The translations under genes were made by a program, and so were the position numbers. This document shows positions 28,933 to 44,410 of a stretch of 64,000 nucleotides of DNA, piece after piece (the first letter of the stretch is position 1; the number at the start of each line of letters is the position of its first letter). Location: positions 1 through 64,000 of the forward strand of contig CAVYSE010000027.1 of assembly GCA_963771075.1 (NCBI GenBank), given 5' to 3'. The notes beneath the pieces were generated by a model. That model was not told the DNA's origin, made no database searches, and was given only the letters and a program-made list of their open reading frames with translations. The DNA comes from a candidate division FCPU426 bacterium (GTDB lineage Bacteria; Oederibacteriota; Muellerivitia; Muellerivitales; Muellerivitaceae).

Positions 28933-28957
28933 GGAACCGAGGGTTCCGCAAAGGGGA
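28933..28957 (+). repeat. 25-bp direct repeat, left island boundary
   Basis: GGAACCGAGGGTTCCGCAAAGGGGA, identical to 44386-44410. Confidence 0.9.
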
Positions 28958-29312
28958 CAGAGTAAACCCGGAAAATGGGTTTAAGATTCCTTGAATGAAG
29001 AAAGTTTTTTTCTGGGCCTCTGTCTCTTTGGCCTTTAGGGCCAAAGAGCGCTGGACATACCGACCTCCTTATGGGTTTATGGAAGGTCGGCCTGTGGTGA
29101 AATTAGGTATCGTTATAGTCTCTTAGGAAATGTTGAGCGGCCCGGCGACTGGGTTCCGAAATCCGATTTTTTGCACAATCGCAGTCCGGTTTACCGTCCA
29201 ACCGGAAAAAAATTCCCGCCCGAAGAATTTCCCATTTGACCATGCGTTCTATTTCGGTTTATAAAAATTAAGTTGTTACGGGGAGACAAACTATGAAGCT
29301 GGAGGTCTCCCT

Positions 29313-31841
29313 GTGCCCGTTGAAACCAAATCCGTTACCGTCTTGTCGATCCCACTTGAAGAGCTTTATGTCCCCGATTGGAACCCCCGAAAGATCATTG
29401 AACGGTCGGCCTTAGTCAGCCTAATTGAGTTCATGCGGTTGGGTGGGCCGATCCCCCGCATCGTCGTCTTGCGGGGCCAGGAAAAGGGGCTTTGGGCGAT
29501 CATCGAAGGCCAGATGCGCTTCTTGGCCGCCCAGAGTTTGGGTTGGACCCACCTGGATGCCGAGGAGTTTGAAGGAACCCTGGAACAAGCCAAGGACCGG
29601 GCTAATACCTCCAACAATCACAACCCACCCTACTGGCTGGATAAGTACGAGGGATGGAATTCCCGGTTTAAGGACCACCCCGAATGGGACAGCCAAGCCA
29701 AGAAGGCCACCGGGTTAGGGATATCGGATGATTGGGTTAACCGGTGTGTCAACCTCTTGGATGTTTTGAACGAAGCTTCAAGGAAGTTGATTAGGGAATC
29801 AAAGGGTGGAATAGGTATTAAGACGGGTCTTAATTTGTCGGATAAGGATATATCTCCCGAACAGTTCGGGAATAATATGAACGATGACAATTATTCAGGG
29901 TTCGAAAATCGAACCGATTGGGAATTAACCGAACGAGTTGCTTTTGAACTCACCCGGCTTTTGCCCAATCGGGTTTTGGAACCGGCGCAGAGGGTCCCGA
30001 TCCAGGATCAGGCGTTCAAGATTCTCCAAACCGTCATCGCACGGCGAATGACCTCGGCCCAGGTAGCCGCCCATGTAAAGTCGGTTAAGGCTGGCAACGA
30101 CCCGGCCAGGGTCGAAGACAAAGCATTTGCCACCCCTGTCCCGAACTTTCAAGGTGAGGGCCGCGGTTTGATTGCACCCGGTTCTAAAAAAGAACCGGGT
30201 GAAGTTTCCGTGTTTTGGGGCACCATGGCCGGCATCCCCTGGATCAAGGCCATTCGGGCCAAGATCAAGGCAAGTCAAGACCCCACCCTCTGGGAAAAGC
30301 TGTTCCTGGTGGCGGCCTTCTTTGGCCGGATCTTGCATTGGACCTGGCATAAGATATGGCCTCTGACCAAGAAGTCCATCGGCTGGGTTGGGCGACTTCT
30401 AAAAAAGGCTTTGAACGGCACCCTAAGATTCTTGGGGGAGATGGTGGGCAAGCCCGCCAAGAAAATAGCCCAGGGCGTTGTGGGAATCGCCTTGGTGGTG
30501 GGCCTAGCCTATGGACTCTATCTATTCTTCTTCCACCCCGCGGGGATAAGGGGCTTGTTGGGCCGGGCCACCTCTGGGGTAATCCATTGGGTGGGATCTT
30601 GGGTAAACCCGTGGGACGGTGATAATAAATCCATTCCTCAACCACTACCCACGACAATTCCAACCCCGGGAACTTCAAATCCAACACAAAGACACGAAGA
30701 CACAAAGGAAGGCGCGAATGTTGGTTCCAGTGAAACCCAAAACCCAACAACGGCTCGAAAAACTCCTAACTCCTCACTCCCCCCTGGCCCGAAACCTCAG
30801 GATGAGGGCCGAGGTTTGGGCGGCCCAGACCATTCAGGGTCTGGGCTAACTCCTAACTCTCCAGCTGCAACTCCTAACGGCGAAGCCGCCCTGAGGGGCT
30901 CGAAGAGCCGCTCGAAGGGCTCCTTACTCCAATCATCAGTGGTCGCACCAGCTTCTTCCTCTAGCTCTGTTCTCCAATCCGCACCTGGAGCACCCGCCAC
31001 GGGAGAAGAGGCGGCGTGGGTGGCCGAACTCATCCCCGCTTTTCCCCCGCCCTTCCTGGTGAAGCCTTTGGATATTCAGCCCGACCCAACCATTTCCCCC
31101 CTCATGGTCCAGAAAAGGCTTTACGAAATCCAGGACCCCGAAAGAATCCGCGTTTACGTGGGGCATGACCGTCAAGGGGTGAAATCCATGAACGTGGACG
31201 ATGGGGGAATGGACCTTTTCTTCAACGGCTCTTTTGGAGGTCTGCTGGGCGATTCATCCAGCTTTCGGTTCTTCTGGGAAGACGTGCAGGGCATCCGCCT
31301 GGCGACAGTGGAGGTTTCGGGCGACAAGCCGCAAACGCTCTGCTTTTGCGCCCTGGAAGTGAAGACCAAGAAAAAAATGGCGGCCTTCGAGTGCGAGCCG
31401 GGGGACATGACCCATTTGGTGTCGGCCCTGGCGGCGCAGTTTAAAAGCTCCACGAAAAGGGAGCTTTCGGTGGCGCCCCTGCCTTACCTGAACCAGGGTT
31501 TGTGGCTGGGCGAGCAGAACCAGGTAGATGGGCTGTGGAATGAAAGCCCGGCGGGGCGGTCGCAAGAGGTGAAACTGCACTATTCGCTGACGGACTGGAA
31601 AAGACCCTCGACCGGCGGGGGAATCCATCTGGGCGATTATCTTTGGGGCCTGGGTGTGAACAAGGACGAGCAAACCCGGAAGGAAGTATTGCTCAGGCAG
31701 TTGGGCGGGGCGGCCTCGGGGCCGGCGACCCTATTCGTGGTTGGCCCGTTCGATTGGCGCAAGGCCCAGGAAGCCGCGACCGGATCCGGCAACGACCCCT
31801 TCAACCCGCCCCGCAGGGCGGTACGGCTGGTGGCGCCGTGA
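29313..31841 (+). CDS. ParB/Srx N-terminal domain and HTH fused to TM segment(s), a Pro/Ser/Thr linker and a C-terminal globular domain
   Basis: NPRK, IIEGQMRFLAA, SQAKKATGLGISDDWV, hydrophobic VVGIALVVGLAYGLYLFFF; GGAGG before the GTG start. Confidence 0.65.
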   Translation: MPVETKSVTVLSIPLEELYVPDWNPRKIIERSALVSLIEFMRLGGPIPRIVVLRGQEKGLWAIIEGQMRFLAAQSLGWTHLDAEEFEGTLEQAKDRANTSNNHNPPYWLDKYEGWNSRFKDHPEWDSQAKKATGLGISDDWVNRCVNLLDVLNEASRKLIRESKGGIGIKTGLNLSDKDISPEQFGNNMNDDNYSGFENRTDWELTERVAFELTRLLPNRVLEPAQRVPIQDQAFKILQTVIARRMTSAQVAAHVKSVKAGNDPARVEDKAFATPVPNFQGEGRGLIAPGSKKEPGEVSVFWGTMAGIPWIKAIRAKIKASQDPTLWEKLFLVAAFFGRILHWTWHKIWPLTKKSIGWVGRLLKKALNGTLRFLGEMVGKPAKKIAQGVVGIALVVGLAYGLYLFFFHPAGIRGLLGRATSGVIHWVGSWVNPWDGDNKSIPQPLPTTIPTPGTSNPTQRHEDTKEGANVGSSETQNPTTARKTPNSSLPPGPKPQDEGRGLGGPDHSGSGLTPNSPAATPNGEAALRGSKSRSKGSLLQSSVVAPASSSSSVLQSAPGAPATGEEAAWVAELIPAFPPPFLVKPLDIQPDPTISPLMVQKRLYEIQDPERIRVYVGHDRQGVKSMNVDDGGMDLFFNGSFGGLLGDSSSFRFFWEDVQGIRLATVEVSGDKPQTLCFCALEVKTKKKMAAFECEPGDMTHLVSALAAQFKSSTKRELSVAPLPYLNQGLWLGEQNQVDGLWNESPAGRSQEVKLHYSLTDWKRPSTGGGIHLGDYLWGLGVNKDEQTRKEVLLRQLGGAASGPATLFVVGPFDWRKAQEAATGSGNDPFNPPRRAVRLVAP

Positions 31842-31887
31842 GGGGGGCGGCTGTTATTTGGTTTGAATAATTCGGAGGAGGGAGAAC

Positions 31888-32427
31888 ATGGGCGAAATGA
31901 TCGCGGGGTATAAAATCGAGGACAAAATCCTATTTCTTCGGGGCTTCAAGGTGATGCTTTCAAGCGATTTGGCCTAGCTTTATGGGGTCGAAGTCAAGGC
32001 CTTGAACCGCGCTGTCAAACGGAACCGGGACCGGTTTCCGGTCGACTTCATGTTCCAACTGAACGCGAAGGAAGCGCAAAATTTGAAGCGCCATTTTGGC
32101 ACTTCAAGTTGGGGTGGTGCGCGTAGGGATCTGCCCTATGCCTTCACCGAACTCGGCGTGGCGATGCTTTCCAGTGTATTGAGAAGTAAAAAAGCAGTTC
32201 GTGTAAACATTGAAATCATGCGGGTTTTCTCCAGGGTGAGGGAAATGCTGGCCGCGAATAAGGATTTTGCCCGATGGCTGGAAGACCTGGAACGCAAATT
32301 CAACGCACATGACCACCAATTCCAAGCTGTGTTTGAGGCTATCCGCGAGATTATTCGGGTCCCGGAAAAAACCAAAAGGCGGATCGGGTTTTTGGAAGAA
32401 AAATCCGCAGCTTATCGGATCCGTTGA
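31888..32427 (+). pseudogene. ORF6N-domain DNA-binding protein with an in-frame amber codon
   Basis: IEDKILFLRGFKVMLSSDLA*LYGVEVKALNRAVKRN..RFPVDFMFQL..PYAFTELG; TAG at 31975-31977. Confidence 0.85.
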
Positions 32428-32686
32428 TAGATAATATAAAATAAAGAACTGACCCCGTTATTCTTCAAAAGAACGGGACAAACTCGAGAAAGAATTCAAG
32501 GGGACATTCGCAAAGAAGACCGAGAAGTATTTTGTCAGTACGCTCTGCCGGTCATGCTTTGAAGATTCGGTTTTCAGTGATACGCTAAGTTCTGTGAAAG
32601 ATGATGTTGACATTGAATCTGCATTTGAGCTTATCCAAATCTCGACGAATTCGGCGGAACGTTGAAAAATCCAATAATTACAGGCT

Positions 32687-32723
32687 CCTGCACATGGCTG
32701 TTTCAAAAAGGATGGTGTGCAAC
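32687..32723 (+). repeat. 37-bp dispersed repeat, copy A
   Basis: CCTGCACATGGCTGTTTCAAAAAGGATGGTGTGCAAC. Confidence 0.9.
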
Positions 32724-32820
32724 GTAATTTTGTTCGAAACGACGAAAAGCCCAATTCCTAGCAAGAAAAATGGATTTAAATATTTTTATACTACGGCTAA
32801 AAAACCAGAAAATATTTCTT

Positions 32821-33057
32821 TTAAGGCCGGAGCTTTAGTGCTTCAGTGTCTTTGGGCGATGTCGGAGAACTCAAACAGAAATTTTTATAGGGTTCCTTAA
32901 AATAGAGATCCAATGCCGCCCTCACGATTTGTGATTTGGTTTTCCTCACGCCGCTTTTGCCTGCGTTAACGACTTCTTCGGAAATTTGTTGGATATGGGT
33001 TTTGGATACCATGAAATCAGCGCGAATCAATTTATATAGGGAATGCTCCTCACTCAT
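32821..33057 (-). CDS. Small ribbon-helix-helix-like protein, 3' end probably disrupted
   Basis: TKSQIVRAALDLYF; GAGG RBS upstream. Confidence 0.45.
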   Translation of the reverse strand: MSEEHSLYKLIRADFMVSKTHIQQISEEVVNAGKSGVRKTKSQIVRAALDLYFKEPYKNFCLSSPTSPKDTEALKLRP

Positions 33058-33431
33058 AGAGTTACCTCACGTGAGATTTGATTATAAAGATAACTTACTT
33101 GTTTATATGTTTTTGGCAATCCACTTTATATGTGTACGTCAAAAATAGTGCAAAAAATGGGCGATTAATTGCTTGGAATTGATTCGTTTTTAAGGAACGA
33201 CTGAAGATCCGAAATTTTCGCGGTAAACCAAAGAGTGGAAAGAAAGCAAACTGTTTTTTTTAATCGATTCCTTCTTCATCCAGGATGAGTCGTAGGGTTC
33301 TAAAGCGCGTTTCCAAGATACCATCTATAAGCACCGCTATCCAGTTAATGGTCGATGAATCCCTGGCAAGCCCAGTGCGATTGCAGACGGTTTGTGAAGC
33401 AAAGCACGCCAACGACTAATGGAAAGAATGA

Positions 33432-33466
33432 AGCCGGAGTGGCATGAAAACCCCGCCACTCCGGCT
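33432..33466 (-). terminator. Hairpin after the S53 protease gene
   Basis: AGCCGGAGTGGC/GCCACTCCGGCT 12-bp stem. Confidence 0.6.
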
Positions 33467-33479
33467 CCGCCAGACGCCC

Positions 33480-36400
33480 TCAATGGATGACGATGATTTT
33501 TCCGGTCCGAGTTTTAAAGCCGGTACCGTCATTCGCTTGGAGGGTATAGATATAAAGCCCGCTTGCCACCAACGAGCCCATTTGGTTCTCCAGCGGCCAT
33601 TCCAGGGTATTCAAACCGGGATTACCGGCTACGCTTGCCTGATAGACCAATTCACCCATCACGGTGTAAATCGCGAGGCGTAACTGGACCGATTTCCCGA
33701 GTTCCACCTGCAACTTCACCGGAACCCCGTTCCGGGAGATGTTCGGCACCGCCGTCACGTCCAGGCCTGCGCCTGAGGTATCCGGAACCGGAACAACGGT
33801 CAGGCTAGGACTGGGGGTTGGGGTGGGTGTGATGCCCTCTTCCGACATGCGCATGGCGTCGGACATGACCGCACCATGTGGGGTGGGGGTTTTCGTCGGC
33901 GTGGACGTTCGCGTCGGTGTACGGGTGAAGGTAGAGGTCCTCGTAAAGGTCGGTGTATTGGTGTGGGTATAGGTGGGCACAGGCGGGTTGAGTTGGCAAG
34001 TCACCCCGCACTGACCGTAGACCCTTACGTTGTGTGAGGAGGCTCCGCTGTCCCCCTGGTAGAGGTTGCCGCAAATGTCGAAAGCGATTCCCATTGAATC
34101 CTGCGACTTGCCCGAGCCCGTACCGGAGGCCCCCCCGATTGTCATTAGAGCGGAACCGGTGTTGTTATCAACGATGATCTGGCTGGTCACAGGGCTGGAT
34201 GCTATGACCTCGCTTTGGTACACGTTGTTATCCAGACCGACGGCTAGTCCGGTCGCGGTTACGCCCGTCGCACTCGTCCCGTTGGGATACCACATGCCGA
34301 GCCATGGGTCGCCAAAATGAGGCCCTAGGATATAACTCGATACCCTTGGATAGGAATTAAGGACGGTTGTGGGGTAATCCGTCACGAATAGGTAGTTTCC
34401 TTCCCGGTCGACAGCGACCTGTACGGGGTCCACGTATGTACCTGAGAAGGTGTTGACGTAACTGATCCCACCCGAGTTGGGGTTTAGGTTCATTTCCACC
34501 ACCCGGTTGTTGCCAGTATCCGCAACATAGAAGTCGTAGTTGGAATCAGTTGCGATGCCACGCGGCGAACTGAAATTAATGGAGTTTGCCGACCCCACGG
34601 AAACCCATTGCCCGGCACCTTCGAAGAAGTAGAGAATATCTACCCGGTTATGTCCGGTGTCAGTGACGAAGATGTCTCCATTGGTGTCGGTGGCGATACC
34701 GGAGGGATTGCTGAACGCCCATGCTGGGTTGAAGTACCAAGTCGACGCGCCGCTCCCCGTGGAAAGGATCATGTAATCCACCCGCGTTGAGTCTAAGACG
34801 AACATCGTGGCACCCACAATGGCCTCGGCGATAGGCTTCGTGAATGAGAACCCCGTGGGAGTGATAGTCGCCTTCGGCGCGTAACAGGGTGTCGGAAGGG
34901 AGGTCGGCGTCGGGGTCGCCGCATCGGAGCAAGGCGCGATCCAGGTGTCGCCGTACGGCCCGCTTATCCCCGAACAATTTGTACCGTTACCGCCGAAAAC
35001 ATAAGGGTTTCCGTTGAACGAAAGCGCCCCGAAATAGGACCGGACTGGGAAGGCGTTCGCATTCGCCTCGGTCCAAGTGGAGCCGTTGGTCGAGGTCCAA
35101 ACGTCGCCGTGGAAACCGCAACCTCCGCCGCTATATCCTCCGGTCAGCCACATCTGGCCACAGTAGACGAACGCCTGTGACCCTTGCCTGGCAGCGAAAG
35201 CCGCTGCGGAGGTGGCCACAGACCAATTTGCACCGTCGGACGAAGAATATACGTCGGTCAGGGGGCCGCTATTGTAGCCAGCGATCACCCACATTTCCGA
35301 GTTATAGACCAGGCAGCTTTCACCACTGCGGGCAGGAAACGGAGTTACCTGGTTCACTTGCGTCCAAGTCACCCCGTTGGAGGAATTCCACACATCGTTT
35401 TGCGTGCTATCTACGCCGATCAGCCACATCTGGTTGTTGTACACGACTAATCCAAAGCCAGTCACCGCTGTAAAGATTGAAGTTCCCGAGGAGGGTACCG
35501 GCGTGACCTGGGACCAGTGAATCCCGTCGAAAGAATAGTTAACGTATTTATTGACGGTTCCTACTGTGTTGTCATTGGATTCCCCGCCGATTTCCCACAT
35601 CCGTGACCCCTTGCCGTCACCCGGATCAAAAGTCACCGCAGCCCCACCACACTCGGTGTAAGGCGCTGAGGAAGTCGTCCGGTACCATTGCATTCCATTG
35701 GCCGAACTCCAGACCTGTGGAATGGCGTTGCCAATAATGCTGTTTCCCGGAACTCCACCGATGGCCCACATCTTGTTCTGATAAACAAGACTCTGGAACG
35801 ATTCAATGGGTGGAAAATTGGACTTCAATTGGTCCCAGGAGGTCCCGTCCGCGCAGCAGGAAGGAGTCGGCGTGGGCGTGGGGGTGGGAGTTTCGTTCAA
35901 AAGACCCAGAATGTTATTGATGAGAGTGTAGCCGCTTGCGTTGGGGCTTCCCAGCCCGGTCGCCAGATCATACCCGGTGACCGCCGGGTACCCGTTGTTG
36001 CCGGTCGTAATGTCGTGGAAGTTGCTGGCGGGGTCGTAGTTTGTTGCTGTCCCTGCGATCCCATAAAGAAGTGGGTTCGCGAAGCCGACCGGTGGCTGGG
36101 CGTTCAACAGAGCCTGCTGGTTGGTCATGGCCATGACAGAGGCCCAAAGCGGCGTGGCCGCGCTTGTTCCTCCGATCAGCCCGATGGCCGCGCCGTCGAA
36201 GCTGATGTTGAAAATGGCGTCTCCCACCATGGAAACGTCCGGCAGGTTCCGGTAGCTCGTGGAACCCTTGCATGCGGTGGTGATGAAGGGCGATTGGTAG
36301 GTAGGAATAGTGATTCCCGGCAACGTGACGGGCACCGAGTAACCTTTCAAGATCCCACCCCCACTGGTTCCAATAGCGTATTGCCTCATCCACACTGTTT

Positions 36401-37730
36401 CAGAGCTGTAGTAAGGGTTAGAGCCCACCGCATTGGTAGACAACTCGGTGGCTCCCACGACCGTCATGTTATTCTCGTCGCGGATGTCCCCTGGATCGAC
36501 GGGATAGGCCCCCGAATCACCTGAGGCCTGGAAAAATGACTGGCCTTGTAGCGCCATCTCGGCCAGGGAAGCGGTCATGGAGGGATCGGTGTAGGAGATG
36601 AAGTCGGTCCAGGAACTACTCAACTGCTGGCAGAAGGGTGTACCCGGTGAGGGATTCGCCATATCAGCGAGGACGTCGTCGCCATAGGCTCCCTCGAACA
36701 CAATCACCTGGGCGCCCGGCGCCATGCACAGCACCATGTCGATGTCCAAAGCCACCTCGTCGTTCCCATATCCCGGCGCAACATCGAAATTGGAGTTGCT
36801 GTTCACGTAAACGCTTTGGACGATGGAGCCGATCGTGGACGAGTTAATCCCGTTTAAACCGGCTCCCGAAGCAACGCAGGTCGCGGCGTAGCTCAAAATG
36901 TCGTTTAGATAAAAACCGTCAAGCTCGAAAAGCCCTATCGCCTGGCCCGACCCGTCCAAGGTGCAACCTTGGGCGTAGGCATTGCGGAAATTATTCCCCA
37001 AGTATGTCGCGACCCCGTCATAGGTGGGTCCTGATCCAATATTGGCAACGCCCTTCGTCAACTTGGCCTGTGGTCCAGGAACGCCATGAGGCCCATGAAC
37101 TATGTTTGTTTTTGGCACGTTATAGTTTTCCAAGCCTGTCACATGGAGCAATTGCACATCCAAATCAACTGATGGCTCCCGGTCGGGAGAACGGAACTGA
37201 GTACCATCCGACCTCTTGTAATTACCCATCTTCACGTGGAATGCCTTCTCGATGTCAGCGACGTTACCACTCACGTCCAGAACAGCCCGGTTGCCGTAGT
37301 TTTGGATGACGGCGAGTTTGTGGTTTTTGGCGTAGGCAATAACGGCCTGGTAATCTTCCTCGGTCGGGCCGAACATTTGCGTGAATTTTTCCGGTGACAG
37401 GAACTGACGGTACCGGGGGCTTTTCTTGTCGTAACGGTCCTTGAGGAGATACTGCATGGCTTCGGAGTTTCGCAGGGGCAGGCTGATGGCCAAGTCGAGG
37501 TGGTCGGTGGACGCCATGTCCCCGATCCTTGTAGCCGTTGTAGCCTGTGGAGGGACGTGGCCTTTCATCGACTGACGGCCTGCGACTTGGGCCAGTGCCT
37601 CGGCTGGCGGACACACGAGCAAAAGAGCTAGCATGACCGACCCTAGGGTAGTTTTCCCTGCCAATCGCACCCAGGGGTGGAAAGCCCCGAAAAGTTTTAA
37701 TCCTCCGAACGTTTTTTTCGAACGTGTCAT
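33480..37730 (-). CDS. Secreted S53 (sedolisin/kumamolisin) peptidase with prodomain, Kelch-like and NHL propellers, PT linkers and a C-terminal FlgD-Ig-like domain
   Basis: EVALD, SGDSGA, GGTSAATP, GYDLATGLGSP; likely start ATG 37730 with GGAGG. Confidence 0.88.
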   Translation of the reverse strand: MTRSKKTFGGLKLFGAFHPWVRLAGKTTLGSVMLALLLVCPPAEALAQVAGRQSMKGHVPPQATTATRIGDMASTDHLDLAISLPLRNSEAMQYLLKDRYDKKSPRYRQFLSPEKFTQMFGPTEEDYQAVIAYAKNHKLAVIQNYGNRAVLDVSGNVADIEKAFHVKMGNYKRSDGTQFRSPDREPSVDLDVQLLHVTGLENYNVPKTNIVHGPHGVPGPQAKLTKGVANIGSGPTYDGVATYLGNNFRNAYAQGCTLDGSGQAIGLFELDGFYLNDILSYAATCVASGAGLNGINSSTIGSIVQSVYVNSNSNFDVAPGYGNDEVALDIDMVLCMAPGAQVIVFEGAYGDDVLADMANPSPGTPFCQQLSSSWTDFISYTDPSMTASLAEMALQGQSFFQASGDSGAYPVDPGDIRDENNMTVVGATELSTNAVGSNPYYSSETVWMRQYAIGTSGGGILKGYSVPVTLPGITIPTYQSPFITTACKGSTSYRNLPDVSMVGDAIFNISFDGAAIGLIGGTSAATPLWASVMAMTNQQALLNAQPPVGFANPLLYGIAGTATNYDPASNFHDITTGNNGYPAVTGYDLATGLGSPNASGYTLINNILGLLNETPTPTPTPTPSCCADGTSWDQLKSNFPPIESFQSLVYQNKMWAIGGVPGNSIIGNAIPQVWSSANGMQWYRTTSSAPYTECGGAAVTFDPGDGKGSRMWEIGGESNDNTVGTVNKYVNYSFDGIHWSQVTPVPSSGTSIFTAVTGFGLVVYNNQMWLIGVDSTQNDVWNSSNGVTWTQVNQVTPFPARSGESCLVYNSEMWVIAGYNSGPLTDVYSSSDGANWSVATSAAAFAARQGSQAFVYCGQMWLTGGYSGGGCGFHGDVWTSTNGSTWTEANANAFPVRSYFGALSFNGNPYVFGGNGTNCSGISGPYGDTWIAPCSDAATPTPTSLPTPCYAPKATITPTGFSFTKPIAEAIVGATMFVLDSTRVDYMILSTGSGASTWYFNPAWAFSNPSGIATDTNGDIFVTDTGHNRVDILYFFEGAGQWVSVGSANSINFSSPRGIATDSNYDFYVADTGNNRVVEMNLNPNSGGISYVNTFSGTYVDPVQVAVDREGNYLFVTDYPTTVLNSYPRVSSYILGPHFGDPWLGMWYPNGTSATGVTATGLAVGLDNNVYQSEVIASSPVTSQIIVDNNTGSALMTIGGASGTGSGKSQDSMGIAFDICGNLYQGDSGASSHNVRVYGQCGVTCQLNPPVPTYTHTNTPTFTRTSTFTRTPTRTSTPTKTPTPHGAVMSDAMRMSEEGITPTPTPSPSLTVVPVPDTSGAGLDVTAVPNISRNGVPVKLQVELGKSVQLRLAIYTVMGELVYQASVAGNPGLNTLEWPLENQMGSLVASGLYIYTLQANDGTGFKTRTGKIIVIH

Positions 37731-38174
37731 GCAATCCTCCGTGAATTCAAAAAAAGAAACGATCCAAAGAAAATGAAATCGGCATGGGTGTCGGTATTTC
37801 AAACTTGAACCAGGAAAATTTTACGGAAAAACCGGACGGGAAATTTTCTATGTGCTGTGTATGTGTATGCTTTTGGTGCAAGAAAGGAAAAGGAAAAACC
37901 CGTGCTTCCGTCGACCACGCTCAACCCTTCATCACGGTTTGGATACTGACTTATCCGCCTTTACCCCGAAGTGATTTAGGCGATTGTGTTAATATATTTT
38001 TGACGGGACGCTGTAGGCCTGTTGCAAGGTTGTCCGCGAATAGGTACCCGCCGTGGACAAGGAAAAGGGCGGAAAGTACTACACCCTAGCGAATAGAAGA
38101 AAGCATGAAAAAAATAATATCCGATGTATGTGCTTTTAAACCTCGTTTAAGCCTATCCAATCTGTTGACCCTTC

Positions 38175-40247
38175 ATGGGCAAGTCCGGAAATCCTATGGA
38201 CTCGTTTAAAGGGGCGGTTCTCCCCGCCGCCAACCGTCGCCTGTTTTGGGTCCTGGCGCTCCTACCCGTCCTTTTGACAATCTTGTTCTACCTCCCCGTT
38301 CTGAGGAATGGATTTGTATATTCCTGGGATGACAGCGAGGTTATTTCAAACAACATTCATATCCGGTCATTCCGTTTTTCAAATCTCTATTGGATGTTCA
38401 CCGACATCACCACGGGGTACTGGATGCCGCTGACCTGGCTATCTCTTGCCCTGGATTACCAATGGGGCGGTCTCAACCCCATGGTCTACCATGGAACAAA
38501 TCTTCTATTACATAGCCTCAACACCCTGGTGGTTTTTTTCCTAGGCTATCGGCTGATTCCCCTGACCAACTTTATAGCTGGCACTCCGGGGGAAAATTCG
38601 CCTCGGAAAGGGGCTGTATCCGCAGCCTCCCTGACTGCGCTTTTGTTCGGGCTCCACCCCATTCACGTGGAAGCAGTCGCCTGGGCTACGGAAAGAAAGG
38701 ATATGCTATGCGGTTTATTTTTCCTCCTGAGCCTCTTGGCTTACCTGGGTTACGTCTCCGCCAAGGGAAAAAAACCGTTTCAATACGCCGCGTCACTGGG
38801 TTGCTTCTTATTGTCTCTTATGGCTAAACCCATGGCTGTGACGCTTCCGCTGGTTTTCCTTTTATTGGATGCGTGGCCGCTCAAGAGATTAAGGCTGGGT
38901 TGGGCCAAGGTTTTCTTGGAGAAAACGCCGTTTTTCCTCCTGTCCATCCTATCCGGCTGGCTGGCGGTCGCGGGCCAGACCCAAATGGAGGCGCTCCCAA
39001 GCCTTCAACAATTGAGCCTTCCTTACAGACTCATGAACGCTTGCCATTCACTGATTTTCTACTTGTCGGAGGTATTCGCGCCCGTCCATTTAGCCGCTTT
39101 CTATCCATTGCCATCGGAAGCGCAAGTTTATTCCCCCGGATACATCTTCTCGGGTATGGCCGTGGTCCTCCTCTCCATCGTTTGTTTTGTTTACCGTCAC
39201 AAGCGCCCTTATCTGGCGGTGGTTTGGCTGTTTTATATGGTGACCCTTACCCCGGTCATGGGCCTTTTTCAATCGGGAACACAAGCCGCCGCAGTCCGCT
39301 ATGCCTATCTCCCCCTTTTGGGATTCTTCTTTCTGATCGGTTCGTGCGTTTCCTTTACGTTTTCAAAGTACCGGCTGGTGCTAGGCCTTTTGTCTCTCCT
39401 CCTGGCGGTTTTCATGGGCTTTGGGACAGTCCGTCAAATTGAAGTTTGGAGGGATTCCCTGTCACTATGGGAAAACGCGGCAAGTGTGTATCCAGGTATT
39501 TCCGTGAAGATCCAATTGAACCTGGGTGAAAGTTATGCGTGGGCGGGACGTTTGGATGATGCCCTCCGGGCTTATGACTTGGCCGTCAATTTGCAACCGC
39601 CATTGTCCGGCCTCCATAACGGGCGGGGTGTCGTATTGAGCGCGATGGGCCGGATGGACGAGGCGGAAAAGGAATTCAAGTATGCCATTTCAGTAGACCC
39701 CCTCGATCCGCCCCCCCACCAGAACCTTTGGAAACTCTATGAACGGGAGGGGAAGCGGAATGCGGCCCTGGTGGAAATTCAGGAAGCGGTCCGATTGAAG
39801 CCGGATTCCGCCGTGTATCTCAGTGACCTAGGGGATGTCTATACCCAACTGAACAAGAAGAAGGAAGCCCAGGAGGCCTTTCTCCATGCCGTCCAATTGG
39901 ATCCATCCAATGCGCGATACCTGGTCGAACTGGCGGGTTCCTGGGAAAGTCTCGGAAAGATGGACGAGGCGGGTGCCTGTTACAAGCATGGAATGGTCCT
40001 CCATCCCCAAGAGCCGGTTTTTTACCTGAATTTGGGGGAAATGTATTTAAGCCGGGGCATGTTTTCCCAAGCCGTGGAAGTGTTGTCGAGGGCCATCCAA
40101 CTTTGGCCTGGAAATGCGGAAGCGGCCAAGTTATTGGGGGAAGCCTACCAAAAATCCGGGCAGTCCGGCTTGGCGGAGCAATATTTCGAAAAGGTCCAGG
40201 CCTTAAATGGCGGAACCGCGAATCATGTAAGGGATGATCGACCGTAA
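38175..40247 (+). CDS. TMTC-like multi-TM glycosyltransferase with C-terminal TPRs
   Basis: WDD, YWMPLTWLS, HPIHVEAVAWATERKD, KPMAVTLP, RYAYLP, TPR repeats. Confidence 0.8.
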   Translation: MGKSGNPMDSFKGAVLPAANRRLFWVLALLPVLLTILFYLPVLRNGFVYSWDDSEVISNNIHIRSFRFSNLYWMFTDITTGYWMPLTWLSLALDYQWGGLNPMVYHGTNLLLHSLNTLVVFFLGYRLIPLTNFIAGTPGENSPRKGAVSAASLTALLFGLHPIHVEAVAWATERKDMLCGLFFLLSLLAYLGYVSAKGKKPFQYAASLGCFLLSLMAKPMAVTLPLVFLLLDAWPLKRLRLGWAKVFLEKTPFFLLSILSGWLAVAGQTQMEALPSLQQLSLPYRLMNACHSLIFYLSEVFAPVHLAAFYPLPSEAQVYSPGYIFSGMAVVLLSIVCFVYRHKRPYLAVVWLFYMVTLTPVMGLFQSGTQAAAVRYAYLPLLGFFFLIGSCVSFTFSKYRLVLGLLSLLLAVFMGFGTVRQIEVWRDSLSLWENAASVYPGISVKIQLNLGESYAWAGRLDDALRAYDLAVNLQPPLSGLHNGRGVVLSAMGRMDEAEKEFKYAISVDPLDPPPHQNLWKLYEREGKRNAALVEIQEAVRLKPDSAVYLSDLGDVYTQLNKKKEAQEAFLHAVQLDPSNARYLVELAGSWESLGKMDEAGACYKHGMVLHPQEPVFYLNLGEMYLSRGMFSQAVEVLSRAIQLWPGNAEAAKLLGEAYQKSGQSGLAEQYFEKVQALNGGTANHVRDDRP

Positions 40248-40250
40248 TAA

Positions 40251-40287
40251 TAACAATGGGGCCAGGCCTACATATTACACTATATAA
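40251..40287 (+). repeat. Orphan copy of the RAYT left-end sequence
   Basis: 37 nt identical to 43325-43361. Confidence 0.9.
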
Positions 40288-40297
40288 TGAAAACAAA

Positions 40298-40380
40298 GGG
40301 GTCGGGCCAACACATTACACTTTAGAGACGATAATGGGCTGGTACGGAAATTCTAAAATGTAAAATGTAAGCCAGACCCC
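40298..40380. repeat. 83-bp REPIN/MITE-like inverted pair related to the RAYT ends
   Basis: GGGGTCGGGCCAACACATTACACTTTAGA ... TCTAAAATGTAAAATGTAAGCCAGACCCC, 23/29 inverted match. Confidence 0.8.
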
Positions 40381-40456
40381 TTCTTGTTTTTGGTTCACAA
40401 GGCGAGTTAAAACGAAATAGAGGCCAAAAGTAGTTATAATCACAAAGTCTTCCAAC

Positions 40457-40485
40457 TTGACAATGTGCAAAAAGTTGCATATCCT
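40457..40485 (+). promoter_or_regulatory. TA promoter with a palindromic operator
   Basis: TTGACA, 17 bp, TATCCT; ATGTGCAA-N4-TTGCATAT (40463-40482) spans the spacer and overlaps the -10. Confidence 0.7.
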
Positions 40486-40503
40486 AATAGGGAGCCTGAA
40501 TTC

Positions 40504-40806
40504 ATGCGTTATTTTGAAATGCCGCATTTCCAAAGGTTTAGCAGGAACCATTTAGGGGCCAGGGAATATGTGGCGTATCAATTGCAGATTAAGAAGATTT
40601 TCCTGGAGGTTAAGGAAAAGGGCCGGTTGGAAAAAGTCTTAAGGACCAAGGACGGGGAAGCCAGCATCACTTATTACTACTACGACCCCGCTGAAAAAAT
40701 CCTTTACGTCTTGGCGGGACATTTAACCCGGCCAGGAGAGCCAAGACCGGATGAAATAAAGGCCATTGAAGGCTATATCCGGCAGATTGAAGGGGGTAGG
40801 CCATGA
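40504..40806 (+). CDS. Putative RelE/HigB-like toxin (divergent)
   Basis: 100 aa, ITYYYY...ILYVLAG beta pattern, toxin-first overlap with an XRE gene. Confidence 0.55.
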   Translation: MRYFEMPHFQRFSRNHLGAREYVAYQLQIKKIFLEVKEKGRLEKVLRTKDGEASITYYYYDPAEKILYVLAGHLTRPGEPRPDEIKAIEGYIRQIEGGRP

Positions 40807-41150
40807 AAACTTTAAACAGGAAAGCGCCTTACGTTAAGGGCATGATTTCACACGAAGAAAGCATGAAACAATTGAAGAAGACTAGGCCGGAAGTCTACAA
40901 AGCTTTGAAAGACCCGGAACCAAGGGCTTGCTTGGCCTGGAACTTGATGGAATACCGGCATGAGAAAGGGTTAACCCAAAAATCCTTGGCTGATAAGGCC
41001 GGTGTCAGCCTTCGAACGGTGGCCTACATCGAGGACTATGAGGAAAAATTCAGCCCCAATATCAAGATTGTTCAGGCAATAGCTAAAGCATTGGGAGTGA
41101 AATTCACTGACCTTTTCGAAACGGTGGACATAACTAAAGCTCATAGTTAG
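40803..41150 (+). CDS. XRE-family HTH protein, putative HigA-like antitoxin
   Basis: RHEKGLTQKSLADKAGVSLRTVAYIE...PNIKIVQAIAKALGV. Confidence 0.85.
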   Translation: MKTLNRKAPYVKGMISHEESMKQLKKTRPEVYKALKDPEPRACLAWNLMEYRHEKGLTQKSLADKAGVSLRTVAYIEDYEEKFSPNIKIVQAIAKALGVKFTDLFETVDITKAHS

Positions 41151-41238
41151 GCCGGGTGCACCTATGACGGAACAGAAAAACTAAGTAAAAAAAGATCACT
41201 TTAACAATTTAATAAGAAAAAAAAGGGGTCGGGCCCTT

Positions 41239-41275
41239 CTTGTGCATGGCCCTCGCAAAAAGGATGGTGTGCAAC
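41239..41275 (+). repeat. 37-bp dispersed repeat, copy B
   Basis: CTTGTGCATGGCCCTCGCAAAAAGGATGGTGTGCAAC. Confidence 0.88.
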
Positions 41276-41711
41276 TGATTTAGCCAAGACTGCTCTTAAG
41301 GTTGATTCAGATACTGCGAAACTATCTGACATTTGGAAAGCTGCTCAAGCCGTCTACGGCAAATACGCTCCAGAAGTATTGCCTTTTGTGCAAAAGCAAC
41401 TCGAAGATGTTGGGCTTTCAGATTTTTAAGGAGATTTATGTATTTTGCTTTGATGAAAGGAAGGGGCGTTGTTGTGGGTTACCCCTATCCAGATAATAGT
41501 TATTTAGCTGAAATCTATGACATGAAAAAAATGTGTGGGTACTGTGGTCGAAATAAAATTCAATTAAGAGACATTTGTTTAACAAAAGGATTTTCAGACA
41601 ATTATGATTTCTTTAGAACGAATGGGATAAGTGAGTTGTTTTGCAAGGAGGAAGTTGCAAAAAAAATTGAAGCTGCAAAATTATCCGGTGTTTTCTTTCA
41701 AGATATTTATT

Positions 41712-42766
41712 CCCGAGTTCCATAAGTAAGTGCAACACTCAGTGCAAGAAGAAAGCCGCCTCCATAGGATAGGCGGCCATGAAAAAAAACTACAAGCATT
41801 TAAGCGTTGAAGAAAGAGATCACTTGGCCGTTTTGAAGGGGAAAGGTCATGGGGTCCGGGATATCGCCAGAATCCTCAAGCGTTCCCCATCCACCATCTC
41901 CCGCGAACTCAAGCGCAACGCCCCAACCATCCGCACGGGTTATTACTTAGCCCACCGTGCCCACCTACGATATATCGTCCGTAACCAGCAACGGGCACGC
42001 CGTTTACGCCTGAAAACAAAGCGAATTCGTGCCTACGTCCGCCGTCAATTGAAACGAGGTTGGTCTCCTGAACTCATTTCGGGTCGTTGGAGCTGCCTAC
42101 ATCCCAAGCAAACCATTGGCCCCGAAGCCATCTACCAGTGGATTTACATTGAGGCCACTGATTTGATCTCTTACCTCGTTCGACACCACCGGCAACGTCT
42201 CTCTTTCGGCCACAGCCGTAAGCACGCCAAAAACCATATTCCAGGCCGTGTTTCCATCGACAAAAGGCCCAAGGCCGTCAACCAACGCAAGCAGTTCGGC
42301 CATTGGGAAACCGACACCATGGTCTCCCGTGAAAGCAAAGTCGCCATGCGGGCTCTCGTCGAACGTCAAAGCCGTTTTTCCAAGTTGGGAAAGCTCAAAC
42401 GAAAAACAGCTGCCCAAATGAGTCACAGCCTCAATCGTACTTTAGGCCGCTTCCCTCAAGAAGCTCGTCTGAGTTTGACCTACGACAATGGAACCGAAAA
42501 CACCAACCACCTGGAAACCAACCGCGTGCTTGGTACAAAATCCTTTTTCTGTGCGCCTTTCCACAGTTGGGAAAAAGGCACTGTAGAAAATACCATTGGT
42601 CTTGTTCGCCGTTATTTGCCCAAAAAGACTGACCTTGCTAAAGTATCTCTCAAAGAATTCAAAGCCATCGAAAGATGGCTCAATCACAGGCCCAGAAAAT
42701 GTTTGGGTTTTAAAACTCCGGCGGAAGTCTTCCGGCGAAGTGTTGCACTTACTCCGTGAATTCAGC
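41712..42766 (+). mobile_element. IS30-family insertion sequence
   Basis: Imperfect 28-bp terminal IRs with a perfect AGTAAGTGCAACACT core; flanking ATT 3-bp duplication (41709-11 and 42767-69). Confidence 0.88.
41779..42759 (+). CDS. IS30-family transposase
   Basis: RSPSTISRELKRN, WSPELI, GHWETD, TYDNGTE, WEKGTVEN, NHRPRKCLG. Confidence 0.95.
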   Translation: MKKNYKHLSVEERDHLAVLKGKGHGVRDIARILKRSPSTISRELKRNAPTIRTGYYLAHRAHLRYIVRNQQRARRLRLKTKRIRAYVRRQLKRGWSPELISGRWSCLHPKQTIGPEAIYQWIYIEATDLISYLVRHHRQRLSFGHSRKHAKNHIPGRVSIDKRPKAVNQRKQFGHWETDTMVSRESKVAMRALVERQSRFSKLGKLKRKTAAQMSHSLNRTLGRFPQEARLSLTYDNGTENTNHLETNRVLGTKSFFCAPFHSWEKGTVENTIGLVRRYLPKKTDLAKVSLKEFKAIERWLNHRPRKCLGFKTPAEVFRRSVALTP

Positions 42767-43166
42767 ATTATAGAAAAGAGCGATCAAAAGAATTAATGCG
42801 TGGTTTTTTGCAGATGAGGATCGAGAAAAAAATTTCCATGGGGTTAGAAAATCTTTCAAAATTACAACGGATAAATTGTCCTGTTCTAAAAGTTCCTATT
42901 TATGGTTGTTTGGAAAAACCTTGTGGGAAGTATATATTTTCATTTCCGGACGATTTGAACGCAACGAATCTTAAGTCGGGATCGGATTTCGTTTTGGCTG
43001 ATGAATGGTTGGGGGATGGCGGGTTAGCTTTTAATCAAATTCTTGTTTCTGAAAAATTCAAAGAATTGTACGAAATAGAGGGCTGGAGGGGTTTGGAAAT
43101 CAATTCTGTTTGGAAAATAAGAGGGGGTAAGGAGAGTGCTAATTAGAAGTTTAGCAGGAATTTTTA

Positions 43167-43203
43167 CCTGCACATGGCCCTCGCAAAAAGGATGGTGCGC
43201 AAC
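43167..43203 (+). repeat. 37-bp dispersed repeat, copy C
   Basis: CCTGCACATGGCCCTCGCAAAAAGGATGGTGCGCAAC. Confidence 0.9.
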
Positions 43204-43270
43204 ATTTATCCATACGCTCCAAGAGTTGATCGGGGGTCAGATCGTAGCCGGTTTCAGTTTGGAAGGGTTC

Positions 43271-43307
43271 CCTGCACATGGCTGTTTCAAAAAAGATGGT
43301 GTGCAAC
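43271..43307 (+). repeat. 37-bp dispersed repeat, copy D
   Basis: CCTGCACATGGCTGTTTCAAAAAAGATGGTGTGCAAC. Confidence 0.9.
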
Positions 43308-43331
43308 AGCCTAAGGGGGATTTGTAACAAT

Positions 43332-44346
43332 GGGGCCAGGCCTACATATTACACTATATAAAATGGAGAAAACATTTAAACTGTAGCCATGCCAAGGCCT
43401 AAACGGATTCATTACGAGGGAGCGGTGTACCACGTCACCTCGCGCGGGAACGAGCGGCGCAAGATCGTCATGGACGACACGGACCGCTGGATGTTCGTGA
43501 GGCTCCTGGGGGAAATGGTCGGGGAAAACGGGGTGGTTTGCCACGCCTGGGTACTCATGGACAACCATTACCACCTGTTGCTGGAAACGCCAGGGGCGAA
43601 CCTTTCCCTGGCCATGAAGCATTTGAACGCCCTCTACACACAAAAGTTCAACAAGAAGCACCACCGCAACGGACATCTGTTCCAAGGCCGATTCAAGGCC
43701 ATCGTGGTTGAGAAAGAAAGTTATTTGAAGGAATTGTGCCGGTACCTGGTCTTGAACCCGGTGAGGGCCCGGATGGTCAAACACCCGAAAGCGTGGAAAT
43801 GGAGCAGTTACAGGGCGACGGTGGGGCTGGAAAGGCCTGAAAAATGGCTGGAAACGGATTGGATTTTAGGCCAGTTCAGGAAAGAGAAGAAAGAAGCCCA
43901 AAAAGCCTTTGTGTCATTCGTGGCGGAGGGGATGGGAAAAAAGGAATCCCCCTGGGAGAACTTGTCTAACCGGGTCTACCTGGGCGGGGAAGGTTTTTTA
44001 AGTCACGTGCACGAGGTAGGCCAAAAACACAAGCATTTGGATGTGCCGAAATATCAAAAACACGTGTTGAAACAGGATCCGGAGGCGGTTCTGAAAAAGG
44101 TGGCGAAGGTTTATGGGGAAAAGCCGGAAGAGGTATTGCGTGCGGGGCGAAGAAGGAGCGAGGCGCGGGCAGTGGCGATTTACCTGCTCAAGAAAGAATC
44201 GGGCTTAAGCCTGGGGGAAATCGGGAAAAGAATGGGGGTCGGTTTTTCGGCGGTGGGGAACCAATGGTCGAAGGTCAAAAGAAGGCTGGCCGAGGACCCC
44301 AAGTTCGGCCGGATGATTATATTGTGTAAAATGTAGGCCTGGCCCC
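43332..44346 (+). mobile_element. RAYT-like Y1 transposase unit bounded by 30-bp inverted repeats
   Basis: GGGGCCAGGCCTACATATTACACTATATAA (43332-61) matches the reverse complement of 44317-46 at 28/30. Confidence 0.85.
43389..44336 (+). CDS. REP-associated tyrosine (HUH Y1) transposase with a C-terminal DnaA-C-like HTH
   Basis: YHVTSRGN, LMDNHYHLL (HUH), GHLFQGRF, RYLVLNPVRA, WSSY; C-terminal ARAVAIYL..LSLGEIG. Confidence 0.9.
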   Translation: MPRPKRIHYEGAVYHVTSRGNERRKIVMDDTDRWMFVRLLGEMVGENGVVCHAWVLMDNHYHLLLETPGANLSLAMKHLNALYTQKFNKKHHRNGHLFQGRFKAIVVEKESYLKELCRYLVLNPVRARMVKHPKAWKWSSYRATVGLERPEKWLETDWILGQFRKEKKEAQKAFVSFVAEGMGKKESPWENLSNRVYLGGEGFLSHVHEVGQKHKHLDVPKYQKHVLKQDPEAVLKKVAKVYGEKPEEVLRAGRRRSEARAVAIYLLKKESGLSLGEIGKRMGVGFSAVGNQWSKVKRRLAEDPKFGRMIILCKM

Positions 44347-44385
44347 TGACATGCGCAGAATCGCCAAAGTCGAGTAAGTAACATG

Positions 44386-44410
44386 GGAACCGAGGGTTCC
44401 GCAAAGGGGA
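44386..44410 (+). repeat. 25-bp direct repeat, right island boundary; includes the RBS of the EVE gene
   Basis: Identical to 28933-28957. Confidence 0.9.

Follow-up and report, generated by a model that had tools for sequence, protein, structure and literature searches.

What gathers DNA at a locus where pieces of genes, a toxin-antitoxin pair and a transposase stand between copies of short repeats? The question is raised by a 64,000-nucleotide window from the genome of an FCPU426 bacterium (G000:C27:1-64000; G000, the source genome, is 4.39 Mb long in 28 contigs). The analysed region is the right part of an island at 28958-44410 that is framed by a 25-bp direct repeat, and it carries four copies of a 37-bp repeat and a Y1 transposase of the HUH class, with terminal inverted repeats (TIRs) that recur nearby. 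A first-pass annotation had proposed that this transposase "or a partner" captures and stacks foreign, conflict-related DNA in an integron-like way, without IntI or attC. The idea of stacking found support, with the 37-mer as the site, and the likely capture machinery is the partner, Cas1-Cas2, rather than the HUH enzyme. Comparative sequence evidence makes it quite probable that the window holds the decayed remains, as a satellite copy, of a Cas1-Cas2 module that lacks an effector and has very long spacers; a transposon of the TIRYT kind and its debris overlie it.

An intact cas1-cas2-leader unit precedes the repeat

The 37-mer occurs in G000 in 29 copies plus one at a contig edge, and co-oriented runs are common; a reversed control gave none. 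On contig C1, one copy (C1:44261-44297) lies downstream of cas1 and an open reading frame (ORF) of 111 amino acids (aa). The Cas1 protein matches TIGR00287 at 242 bits and reaches no subtype cut-off; its residues E162, H222, D234 and E237 are invariant in all 40 aligned sequences. The 111-aa ORF has weak Pfam and PADLOC matches to Cas2, and 22 of 34 aligned homologues match the Pfam Cas2 model. The top ten PDB matches of its predicted fold (pLDDT 83) are all Cas2 or Cas2-type proteins, so that the predicted structure identifies it as Cas2. Thus, as in a CRISPR locus, cas1 and cas2 here directly precede a leader and the repeat. The intact unit is ∼1.4-1.5 kb long and holds no further gene. The only other cas1 in G000, on C3, is type I-E-like, unrelated and accompanied by a normal array.

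Neither Cas4 nor Cas12f/TnpB gave a match over cut-off in G000, which is 96.7% complete, and none of its 11 tyrosine-recombinase matches rose above the TIGR02249 cut-off for IntI. An Rfam search of the C1 array region yielded no match near the gathering score, and viral contigs gave no match to the 37-mer pattern.

A beheaded version of the same unit opens the array in the window. The start-less fragment seen earlier at 32457-32665 turned out to be the tail of cas2: the 3' part of a variant gene (32464..32665, plus strand), 94% identical to cas2 of the intact C1 locus, is left, and its 5' part and cas1 are gone. The leader, 21 nt from the cas2 stop to the first repeat (32666..32686, plus strand), is kept in all intact copies examined and in related loci. 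The four repeat copies, all on the plus strand, are where the first-pass annotation had placed them, with no match of the reversed control at the same mismatch level. R1 (32687..32723) is a rare variant that within G000 is common to R4 only; R4 (43271..43307) differs from it at one position. R2 (41239..41275), with its first 6 nt altered, is the variant of the C1 locus, and R3 (43167..43203) came from the repeat scan. The R1 variant also occurs in a metagenome locus, L156, on an intact piece with the 3' part of cas1, cas2 and the leader. Since R1 and R4 are the sole copies of their variant in G000 and the variant recurs in L156, our preferred reading of the window is a decayed but independent module, to which cargo or recombination added R2 and R3.

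Long gaps in the repeat arrays

We measured gaps between co-oriented repeats less than 30 kb apart in the fetched regions of five relatives and in all of G000. The 60 gaps from these six genomes range from 30 bp to 26 kb with a median of 1,832 bp, and 56 of them exceed 70 bp. The 37-mer pattern is present in 9 of 31 family genomes (control 0). Cas1 of this type, 96-100% identical, was found in five genomes from four genera among the 61 searched; these five are all among the repeat-bearing genomes and hold 10-27 repeats each. One of them, G027, has three full-length cas1 copies, one of which contains a stop, as well as a partial copy, and on its contig C3 a series of 11 repeats extends across 53 kb behind cas1-cas2. 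Between intact units, homology stops with the repeat, at its final one or two bases.

The DNA in the gaps is cut without regard to genes. An ORF of at least 75 codons runs into the repeat in 28 of the 44 gaps of 0.2-4.3 kb. Pfam was searched with 93 of the 100 ORFs called from 44 gaps of this size, and most had no match. The matched cargo comprises outer-membrane barrels, NHL and TPR proteins, glycosyltransferases, pieces of insertion sequences (ISs), toxins of TA pairs, Rhs, GmrSD and a piece of RadC, so the contents are not mainly of the conflict-related kind expected at first. The first insert at the C1 locus of G000 has a piece of dnaX only 74% identical to the resident gene.

Alternatively, ordinary CRISPR arrays may have lost their effector and subsequently been filled up with mobile elements or reshuffled by recombination among the repeats. 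In line with this, normal arrays occur in cas4-bearing relatives and are built on a similar repeat, identical at 19 of 37 positions; the gaps often contain IS pieces, and arrays mix repeat variants. However, gaps of normal size number just two of 60 in the family and none of 27 in the related loci described below, and the IS pieces come from the interior of their elements: either side is cut at the repeat, and their own ends are missing. Moreover, inter-repeat recombination reshuffles junctions but cannot place a repeat inside a repeat-free gene. We therefore consider this explanation highly improbable.

Sources of the inserted DNA

We traced 23 distinct junctions to a source at 92-100% identity, and in none of them is the source collinear across the repeat. 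This bears on the possibility that the 37-mer is itself a tiny mobile element, similar to a miniature inverted-repeat transposable element (MITE), dropped into existing island DNA, perhaps by Cas1. The sharp borders of the repeat, its imperfect terminal palindrome and the dispersed single copies would fit such an element, but an insertion should leave the flanking DNA continuing past it, and 0 of 23 junctions do so. As, in addition, nearly all arrays are co-oriented and no target duplication was seen, the MITE explanation is largely refuted, and we give it very little credence.

Three gaps have both ends traced to a single source that lies outside the array. One, of 559 bp, is an internal piece of IS1380, matched by three resident copies at 99.75-100%; another, of 379 bp in G002, has ends identical to an element of G000; and the third is the 7,247-bp gap in G001 discussed below. 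An 885-bp gap in G027 lies within a 971-bp gap in G004 at 100% identity and in the opposite orientation. G027 also has overlapping pieces of one source with different ends, as well as a piece of its own cas1-cas2. The anatomy of the arrays, the arbitrary breakpoints and the use of both orientations are shown. At six positions beyond the 23 traced ends we found no base preference that would indicate a protospacer adjacent motif (PAM); some of these sources are themselves inserts. Within the gaps, both ends share a bias: G is at position 3 in 4 of 90 and 3 of 76 ends (7 of 166), and positions 4-5 are A/T-rich. The same bias at both ends is what would be expected if two equivalent active sites handle them.

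All the genomes are metagenome-assembled genomes (MAGs), and several contigs end at the repeat, so that one might suspect false joins between unrelated pieces at a 37-mer present in many copies. The contigs of public runs X1 and X4 were searched. The R1 junction recurs in X4 and the R2 junction in X1; the runs come from different studies, either of which may be the source sample, and in their contigs several different sequences come after the repeat. Mis-joining cannot explain a repeat inside genes whose other copies are without it, and the layout recurs over many assemblies. An assembly artefact thus seems extremely unlikely, the least probable of the explanations that we weighed.

The TIRYT transposase

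The transposon on the right of the array (43332..44346, plus strand) has 30-nt TIRs and a 315-aa transposase with Y1 and DnaA_C domains; no target duplication was seen. The earlier call of a Y1/HUH gene with 30-bp inverted ends is borne out: the ORF at 43389-44336 matches Y1_Tnp (E 1.7e-11) and NCBIfam REP_Tyr_transpos (85 bits, cut-off 80), its translation carries HYH, YxxxNP and SS motifs, and the ends at 43332-43361 and 44317-44346 are 93% complementary. The C-terminus matches Bac_DnaA_C (E 3e-7) at 30.8 bits, slightly below the cut-off of 31.5. The IS200 model gave 18 bits against a cut-off of 55, and the 315-aa protein with its TIRs is unlike the short TnpA (∼150 aa) and subterminal hairpins of the IS200/IS605 type.

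The first-pass annotation had contrasted the TIRs with the subterminal hairpins of IS200/IS605 enzymes, but TIR-flanked Y1 genes are known, and the element is of a kind described in 2013. Such genes were named TIRYT and their units TIRtrons, with a TIR consensus GGGGWSAS and dispersed TIR families (Di Nocera 2013, PMC3733652). They are placed in subclass 2.1, with DnaA_C in 2.1.2 (Quentin 2018, PMC6006769), and group 1 of the REP-associated tyrosine transposases (RAYTs; REP, repetitive extragenic palindrome) is counted among the most IS-like (Bertels 2017, PMC5581495). TIRYT, TnpA-Y1 subclass 2.1.2 and RAYT group 1 are equated in 10.1101/2020.03.09.984088, where a link of group 1 RAYTs to diversifying cyanobacterial loci was proposed and then softened by the authors. 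The window's element has the same Y1 HUH core and C-terminal DnaA_C helix-turn-helix, with TIRs of the GGGGWSAS type in place of REPs and dispersed TIR families. Its TIR starts GGGGCCAG, one base away from the consensus; subfamilies B-D fit GGGGTCAG.

A scan of G000 with nine TIR seeds (control 0 matches) found 80 ends: 45 at transposase genes, 5 in MITE-like pairs and 30 solo. The 14 near-full copies compared fall into subfamilies, each with its own TIRs. Copies within B (three of four), C and D (four of five) are 98.6-100% identical and lie at unrelated sites without target duplication, which points to recent transposition; the mean intragenomic identity given for the subclass is ∼49% (Quentin, PMC6006769). 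The window's copy has a single full sibling in G000, at 75% identity. The protein is present in 19 of the 31 family genomes. Judged from these copies, TIRYT behaves like an ordinary, recently active IS that leaves debris.

Much of that debris lies in the window, and most of the TIR-related copies reported there are real (control 0). A solo end of subfamily C (32427..32456, minus strand; two mismatches to the C-type TIR) points its tip toward the cas2 tail, 6 nt from the start of cas2 homology. A solo copy of the left TIR is at 40258..40287 (plus strand), and 40251-40287 is identical to 43325-43361. The TIR scan also recovered an 83-bp MITE-like pair of ends at 40298..40380, the second end of which (40351-40380) is on the minus strand. 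The motif at 41225 does contain some TIR sequence, but as a remnant of 11-12 nt (41225..41236, plus strand) that abuts the damaged 5' end of R2; this is the junction that recurs in X1. The one at 43232/43233 has no TIR tail; in 11.9 kb, the expected number of bare 8-mers is 4.0.

Across G000, the 5-9 nt outside the GGGG tip are alike among TIRYT ends (AAC plus 0-3 bases) and are sometimes tandemly duplicated; the true cleavage site may accordingly lie outside the TIR. In two subfamilies, one element is inserted at the identical position in the right TIR (C26:∼76300 and C19:∼78930); the start of its transposase presumably resembles IS110.

TIRYT ends and the repeat arrays

Could it be the HUH enzyme that captures cassettes and stacks them, using both its own end motifs and the 37-mer as sites? 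Several observations speak for it. Six of 30 repeats, at four loci, have a TIR end no more than 300 bp away, against a mean of 0.28 for random and 0.71 for low-GC positions. In three of 12 distinct truncated cas2/leader units, the window's included, the cut lies 6-7 nt outside a full TIR, and in another two it lies outside TIR-like remnants that are short or degenerate; of the others, three start at a 26-bp palindrome and four elsewhere. Many ends are solo, as noted, and a unit that ends in a TIR has been duplicated: the ORF6N-family gene (31900..32427, plus strand; Pfam ORF6N, E 2e-18) stops at the TIRYT end, and 31900-32462 is 97.9% identical to C11:544430-544992. The window's copy of this gene has an apparent in-frame stop near its 5' end (31929-31978).

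On the other hand, 18 of the 30 repeats in G000 are more than 49 kb from any TIR end or on contigs without one, and the biggest arrays have no TIR (C3 and C8 of G000; the tested loci of G027 and G004). The 37-mer is absent from 11 of the 19 family genomes with the transposase, and 27 related Cas1 loci gave no TIRYT match. ORF6N homologues in five of six relatives' loci are without a TIR matching the window's, and wherever the unit is intact, the repeat comes after cas2. Finally, a genome-wide motif search showed the ends to be scattered, more than half of them on transposase genes. The HUH enzyme is thus a highly improbable capture enzyme, about as improbable as the ordinary-array explanation. 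With three to five of 12 truncation points at TIR ends, TIRYTs rather seem often to decapitate cas1-cas2 modules, perhaps because they target them or because selection disfavours an active capture machine. We also considered the 37-mer as the end of TIRYT subfamily D, IS30 or IS1380, and rejected it, as no element is bounded by the 37-mer.

The upstream border shared by intact cas1-cas2 units was examined as a possible left end of a transposon and rejected as such, since it proved to be a dispersed 26-bp palindrome. This near-perfect palindrome has 77 sites in G000 (control 0), none of them in the window, and forms runs spaced 0.3-3 kb (C2:54785-68376, C3:166947-175160, C5:72467-90332, C21:2854-13617 and C26:133641-143695). 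It borders intact units in G004, G014 and G027 and several truncated units, and some copies carry an apparent group II intron start. At C12:18930-19193 of G000 there is a deletion derivative made of a palindrome remnant, 148 bp of cas2 tail and leader, and the repeat. The same derivative heads small arrays at different sites in metagenome contigs L155, L160, L163 and L166, and by this recurrence it appears to be a mobile, non-coding array seed.

Related Cas1 loci

All taxon-named sequences among the best 120 of 215 Cas1 homologues, which are 56-97% identical, belong to Patescibacteria. We analyzed 27 related loci outside this family (25 at 39-71% identity and two archaeal) with 3-21 kb of DNA each. 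The repeat follows cas2 in 20 of them; eight have at least two repeats, and all 27 gaps between these are 140-4,007 bp long. No match to Cas4 or Cas12f was found in the 27 loci. All five cas4-bearing archaeal loci differ: two have Cas12f, and three have 37-nt repeats with 35-40-bp spacers. Cas2 carries a W-E/Q/R-T/S motif in the long-gap group, as opposed to YDI in the cas4-linked proteins. Two archaeal loci, L090 and L091, combine the variant Cas2 with a 37-nt repeat, and the gaps in L090 are 1,545 and 429 bp.

A quick tree of 43 rows nests Cas1 of G000 inside the Patescibacteria rows (SH-aLRT 97-99; 98 for the long-gap group), which suggests a transfer of cas1 from Patescibacteria into the family of this FCPU426 bacterium.

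Proposed mechanism and points against it

We infer the following course of events. Cas1-Cas2 would grip both free ends of a double-stranded DNA fragment of any length, needing no Cas4, PAM or length ruler. The ends would be joined to the two borders of a repeat as in CRISPR adaptation, and repair would duplicate the repeat; successive rounds would stack fragments there. In the window, the loss of cas1 and of half of cas2 would have occurred at a TIRYT end. A duplication probably gave rise to R1 and R4 on either side of a single 10.5-kb piece, in which R2 and R3 were already present, having come from another array; alternatively, the array may have been mixed by recombination. TIRYT, for its part, would move itself (it is multi-copy and makes no target duplication), leave solo ends and MITEs and cut up the neighbourhood, and would build no 37-mer arrays.

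Several points weigh against Cas1-Cas2 capture as the origin of the arrays and of the window. The window is without cas1, and its R2 and R3 variants differ from R1, which plain duplication of R1 cannot produce. The available DNA holds no close source for the R1-R2 insert, and none of the window's inserts was traced to a source. Repeats without this cas1 were found in G002 (13 copies, 90% complete), G003, G018 and G025. Two gaps, of 30 and 38 bp, have the size of ordinary spacers, and a uniform 35-40-bp spacer length was not found. As later insertions (IS30, TIRYT) are included in long gaps, the lengths given for these are maxima. The cross-genome identities rest on MAGs; in particular, a 7,247-bp gap in G001, 99.96% identical to C3 DNA of G000, may sit on a mis-binned contig. 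Among the related loci, 12 of the 20 that bear repeats have a single one in the DNA covered and 7 of 27 have none by the rule used. The quick tree does not settle the position of the Cas1s linked to cas4 or Cas12f.

Other features of the island

The 8.5-kb insert between R1 and R2 (32724..41238) is made up of a short AT-rich piece, two long genes, TIR debris and a TA-like pair. The supposed modular cassettes are here in part real, as repeats and inserts, but 33480-40247 consists of two long intact genes: one for an S53 peptidase/NHL/FlgD protein (33480..37802, minus strand) and one for a TPR membrane protein (38175..40247, plus strand). Two shorter stretches could not be confirmed as gene fragments, 32724-32900 having no Pfam match over cut-off and 41276-41429 one unconvincing HEAT-repeat match, to an unrelated repeat protein.

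The TA pair with its own promoter is a HigBA/RelE-like candidate (40465..41150, plus strand). The antitoxin holds up as HTH_3 (E 2e-11), and the toxin is just a lead, a Gp49/RelE-type Atlas match. A promoter-like TTGACA-17-TATCCT is present at 40457-40485; the scan gave two such sites with 1.6 expected. The immunity-like gene, once listed as intact, is an Imm11-like gene of ∼216 codons by frame arithmetic (41438..43146, plus strand; Imm11 E 0.0025, below cut-off). It is split by an IS30-family element absent from the earlier list (41712..42766, plus strand; NCBIfam IS30, 243 bits), which has a 3-bp target duplication and a 99.9% identical copy at C3:183946-185000. The 67-bp insert between R3 and R4 (43204..43270) includes the 8-mer at 43233. 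PADLOC made no defence call for the window's small genes except generic HTH matches, and a metagenome scan of 15 rows (14 loci, several overlapping) contained none of the window's inserts in its output.

The identical 25-bp repeats that border the island (28933..28957 and 44386..44410, both plus strand) are a duplicated stretch of the rhodanese-EVE intergenic region and the only two copies in G000. The junction is empty in G002, G003, G004 and G014, and G001 has a different gene there. The left edge, 28950-29126, belongs to a dispersed family of ∼175-bp hairpin repeats, of which G000 has ∼25 copies. Next to it, 29313-31841 encodes an 842-aa ParB-like protein. Its family is represented in G000 by many copies, both whole and broken, and several of them adjoin truncated cas2/leader units or TIRYT ends. 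The genes around the island are only ∼75% identical to G001, as compared with 95% for the block beside cas1 in the C1 gltB region (L001:9963-14001), where recent exchange of a chromosomal block or a binning effect is possible.

Comparison with known systems and implications

The nearest known CRISPR adaptation modules are the cas1-cas2-cas4(-cas12f) type V-F loci of DPANN-type archaea (L093, L096-L098 and L116). They have in common with the long-gap system the intact Cas1 active-site residues, the Cas2 fold, a 37-nt repeat ending in TGCAAC, a leader between cas2 and the first repeat, and a repeat at both sides of each insert. In contrast to them, the long-gap system yielded no Cas4, effector or PAM, its inserts are 30 bp-26 kb instead of 35-40 bp, its Cas2 is without the YD motif, its leader is ∼21-25 nt, and it has many satellite arrays.

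An integron consists of IntI, attI and attC. Integrons likewise hold an array of foreign pieces separated by a repeated site beside an integrase gene. Unlike them, the long-gap system has no IntI over cut-off; whole-gene cassettes in one orientation are not what the arrays contain, since most of the gaps examined cut an ORF and both orientations occur, and a duplicated 37-mer takes the place of a folded attC as the site. In casposons, too, kilobase DNA is integrated at a fixed site by a Cas1 homologue, with duplication of the target (PMC9939771). As described in that source, casposases need donor TIRs, move their own PolB-carrying element and have no Cas2, whereas here cas2 is present, donor TIRs were not seen and the inserted DNA is arbitrary. 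In short, the system resembles CRISPR adaptation in its proposed mode of action and an integron in its appearance, and fits the definition of neither.

We found no description of Cas1-Cas2 arrays with kilobase spacers in open-access papers and preprints, a coverage that excludes subscription journals and supplements; an apparent one, PMC8860600, was a false match. Spacer length is thought to be fixed within Cas1-Cas2 itself, and canonical integrases are described as setting it by an internal ruler (10.1101/2023.01.23.522648). If our reading is correct, a two-gene system that inserts kilobase DNA at one short site without donor motifs would be a new route of horizontal gene transfer, and it would link CRISPR adaptation back to casposon-like transposition. 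The ruler question would become directly testable by comparing the variant Cas2 with the cas4-linked relatives. Candidate applications of the system would include molecular recording and the site-specific insertion of long DNA. For the TIRYT enzyme class, the first tests could draw on the multi-copy elements, whose ends are defined.

More tentatively, and with rather less than even confidence, we picture a stand-alone Cas1-Cas2 integron that writes arbitrary DNA of up to many kilobases into a fixed 37-bp site and captures its own genes and other arrays. It may have crossed from Patescibacteria into a free-standing family with 4-5 Mb genomes and be spreading between genera (96-99% identity) as a cassette of the palindromic-repeat system, while TIRYTs home in and supply or prune captured ends. 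To such a system, this family would contribute a host outside the candidate phyla radiation, traced sources of inserts, and satellite arrays.

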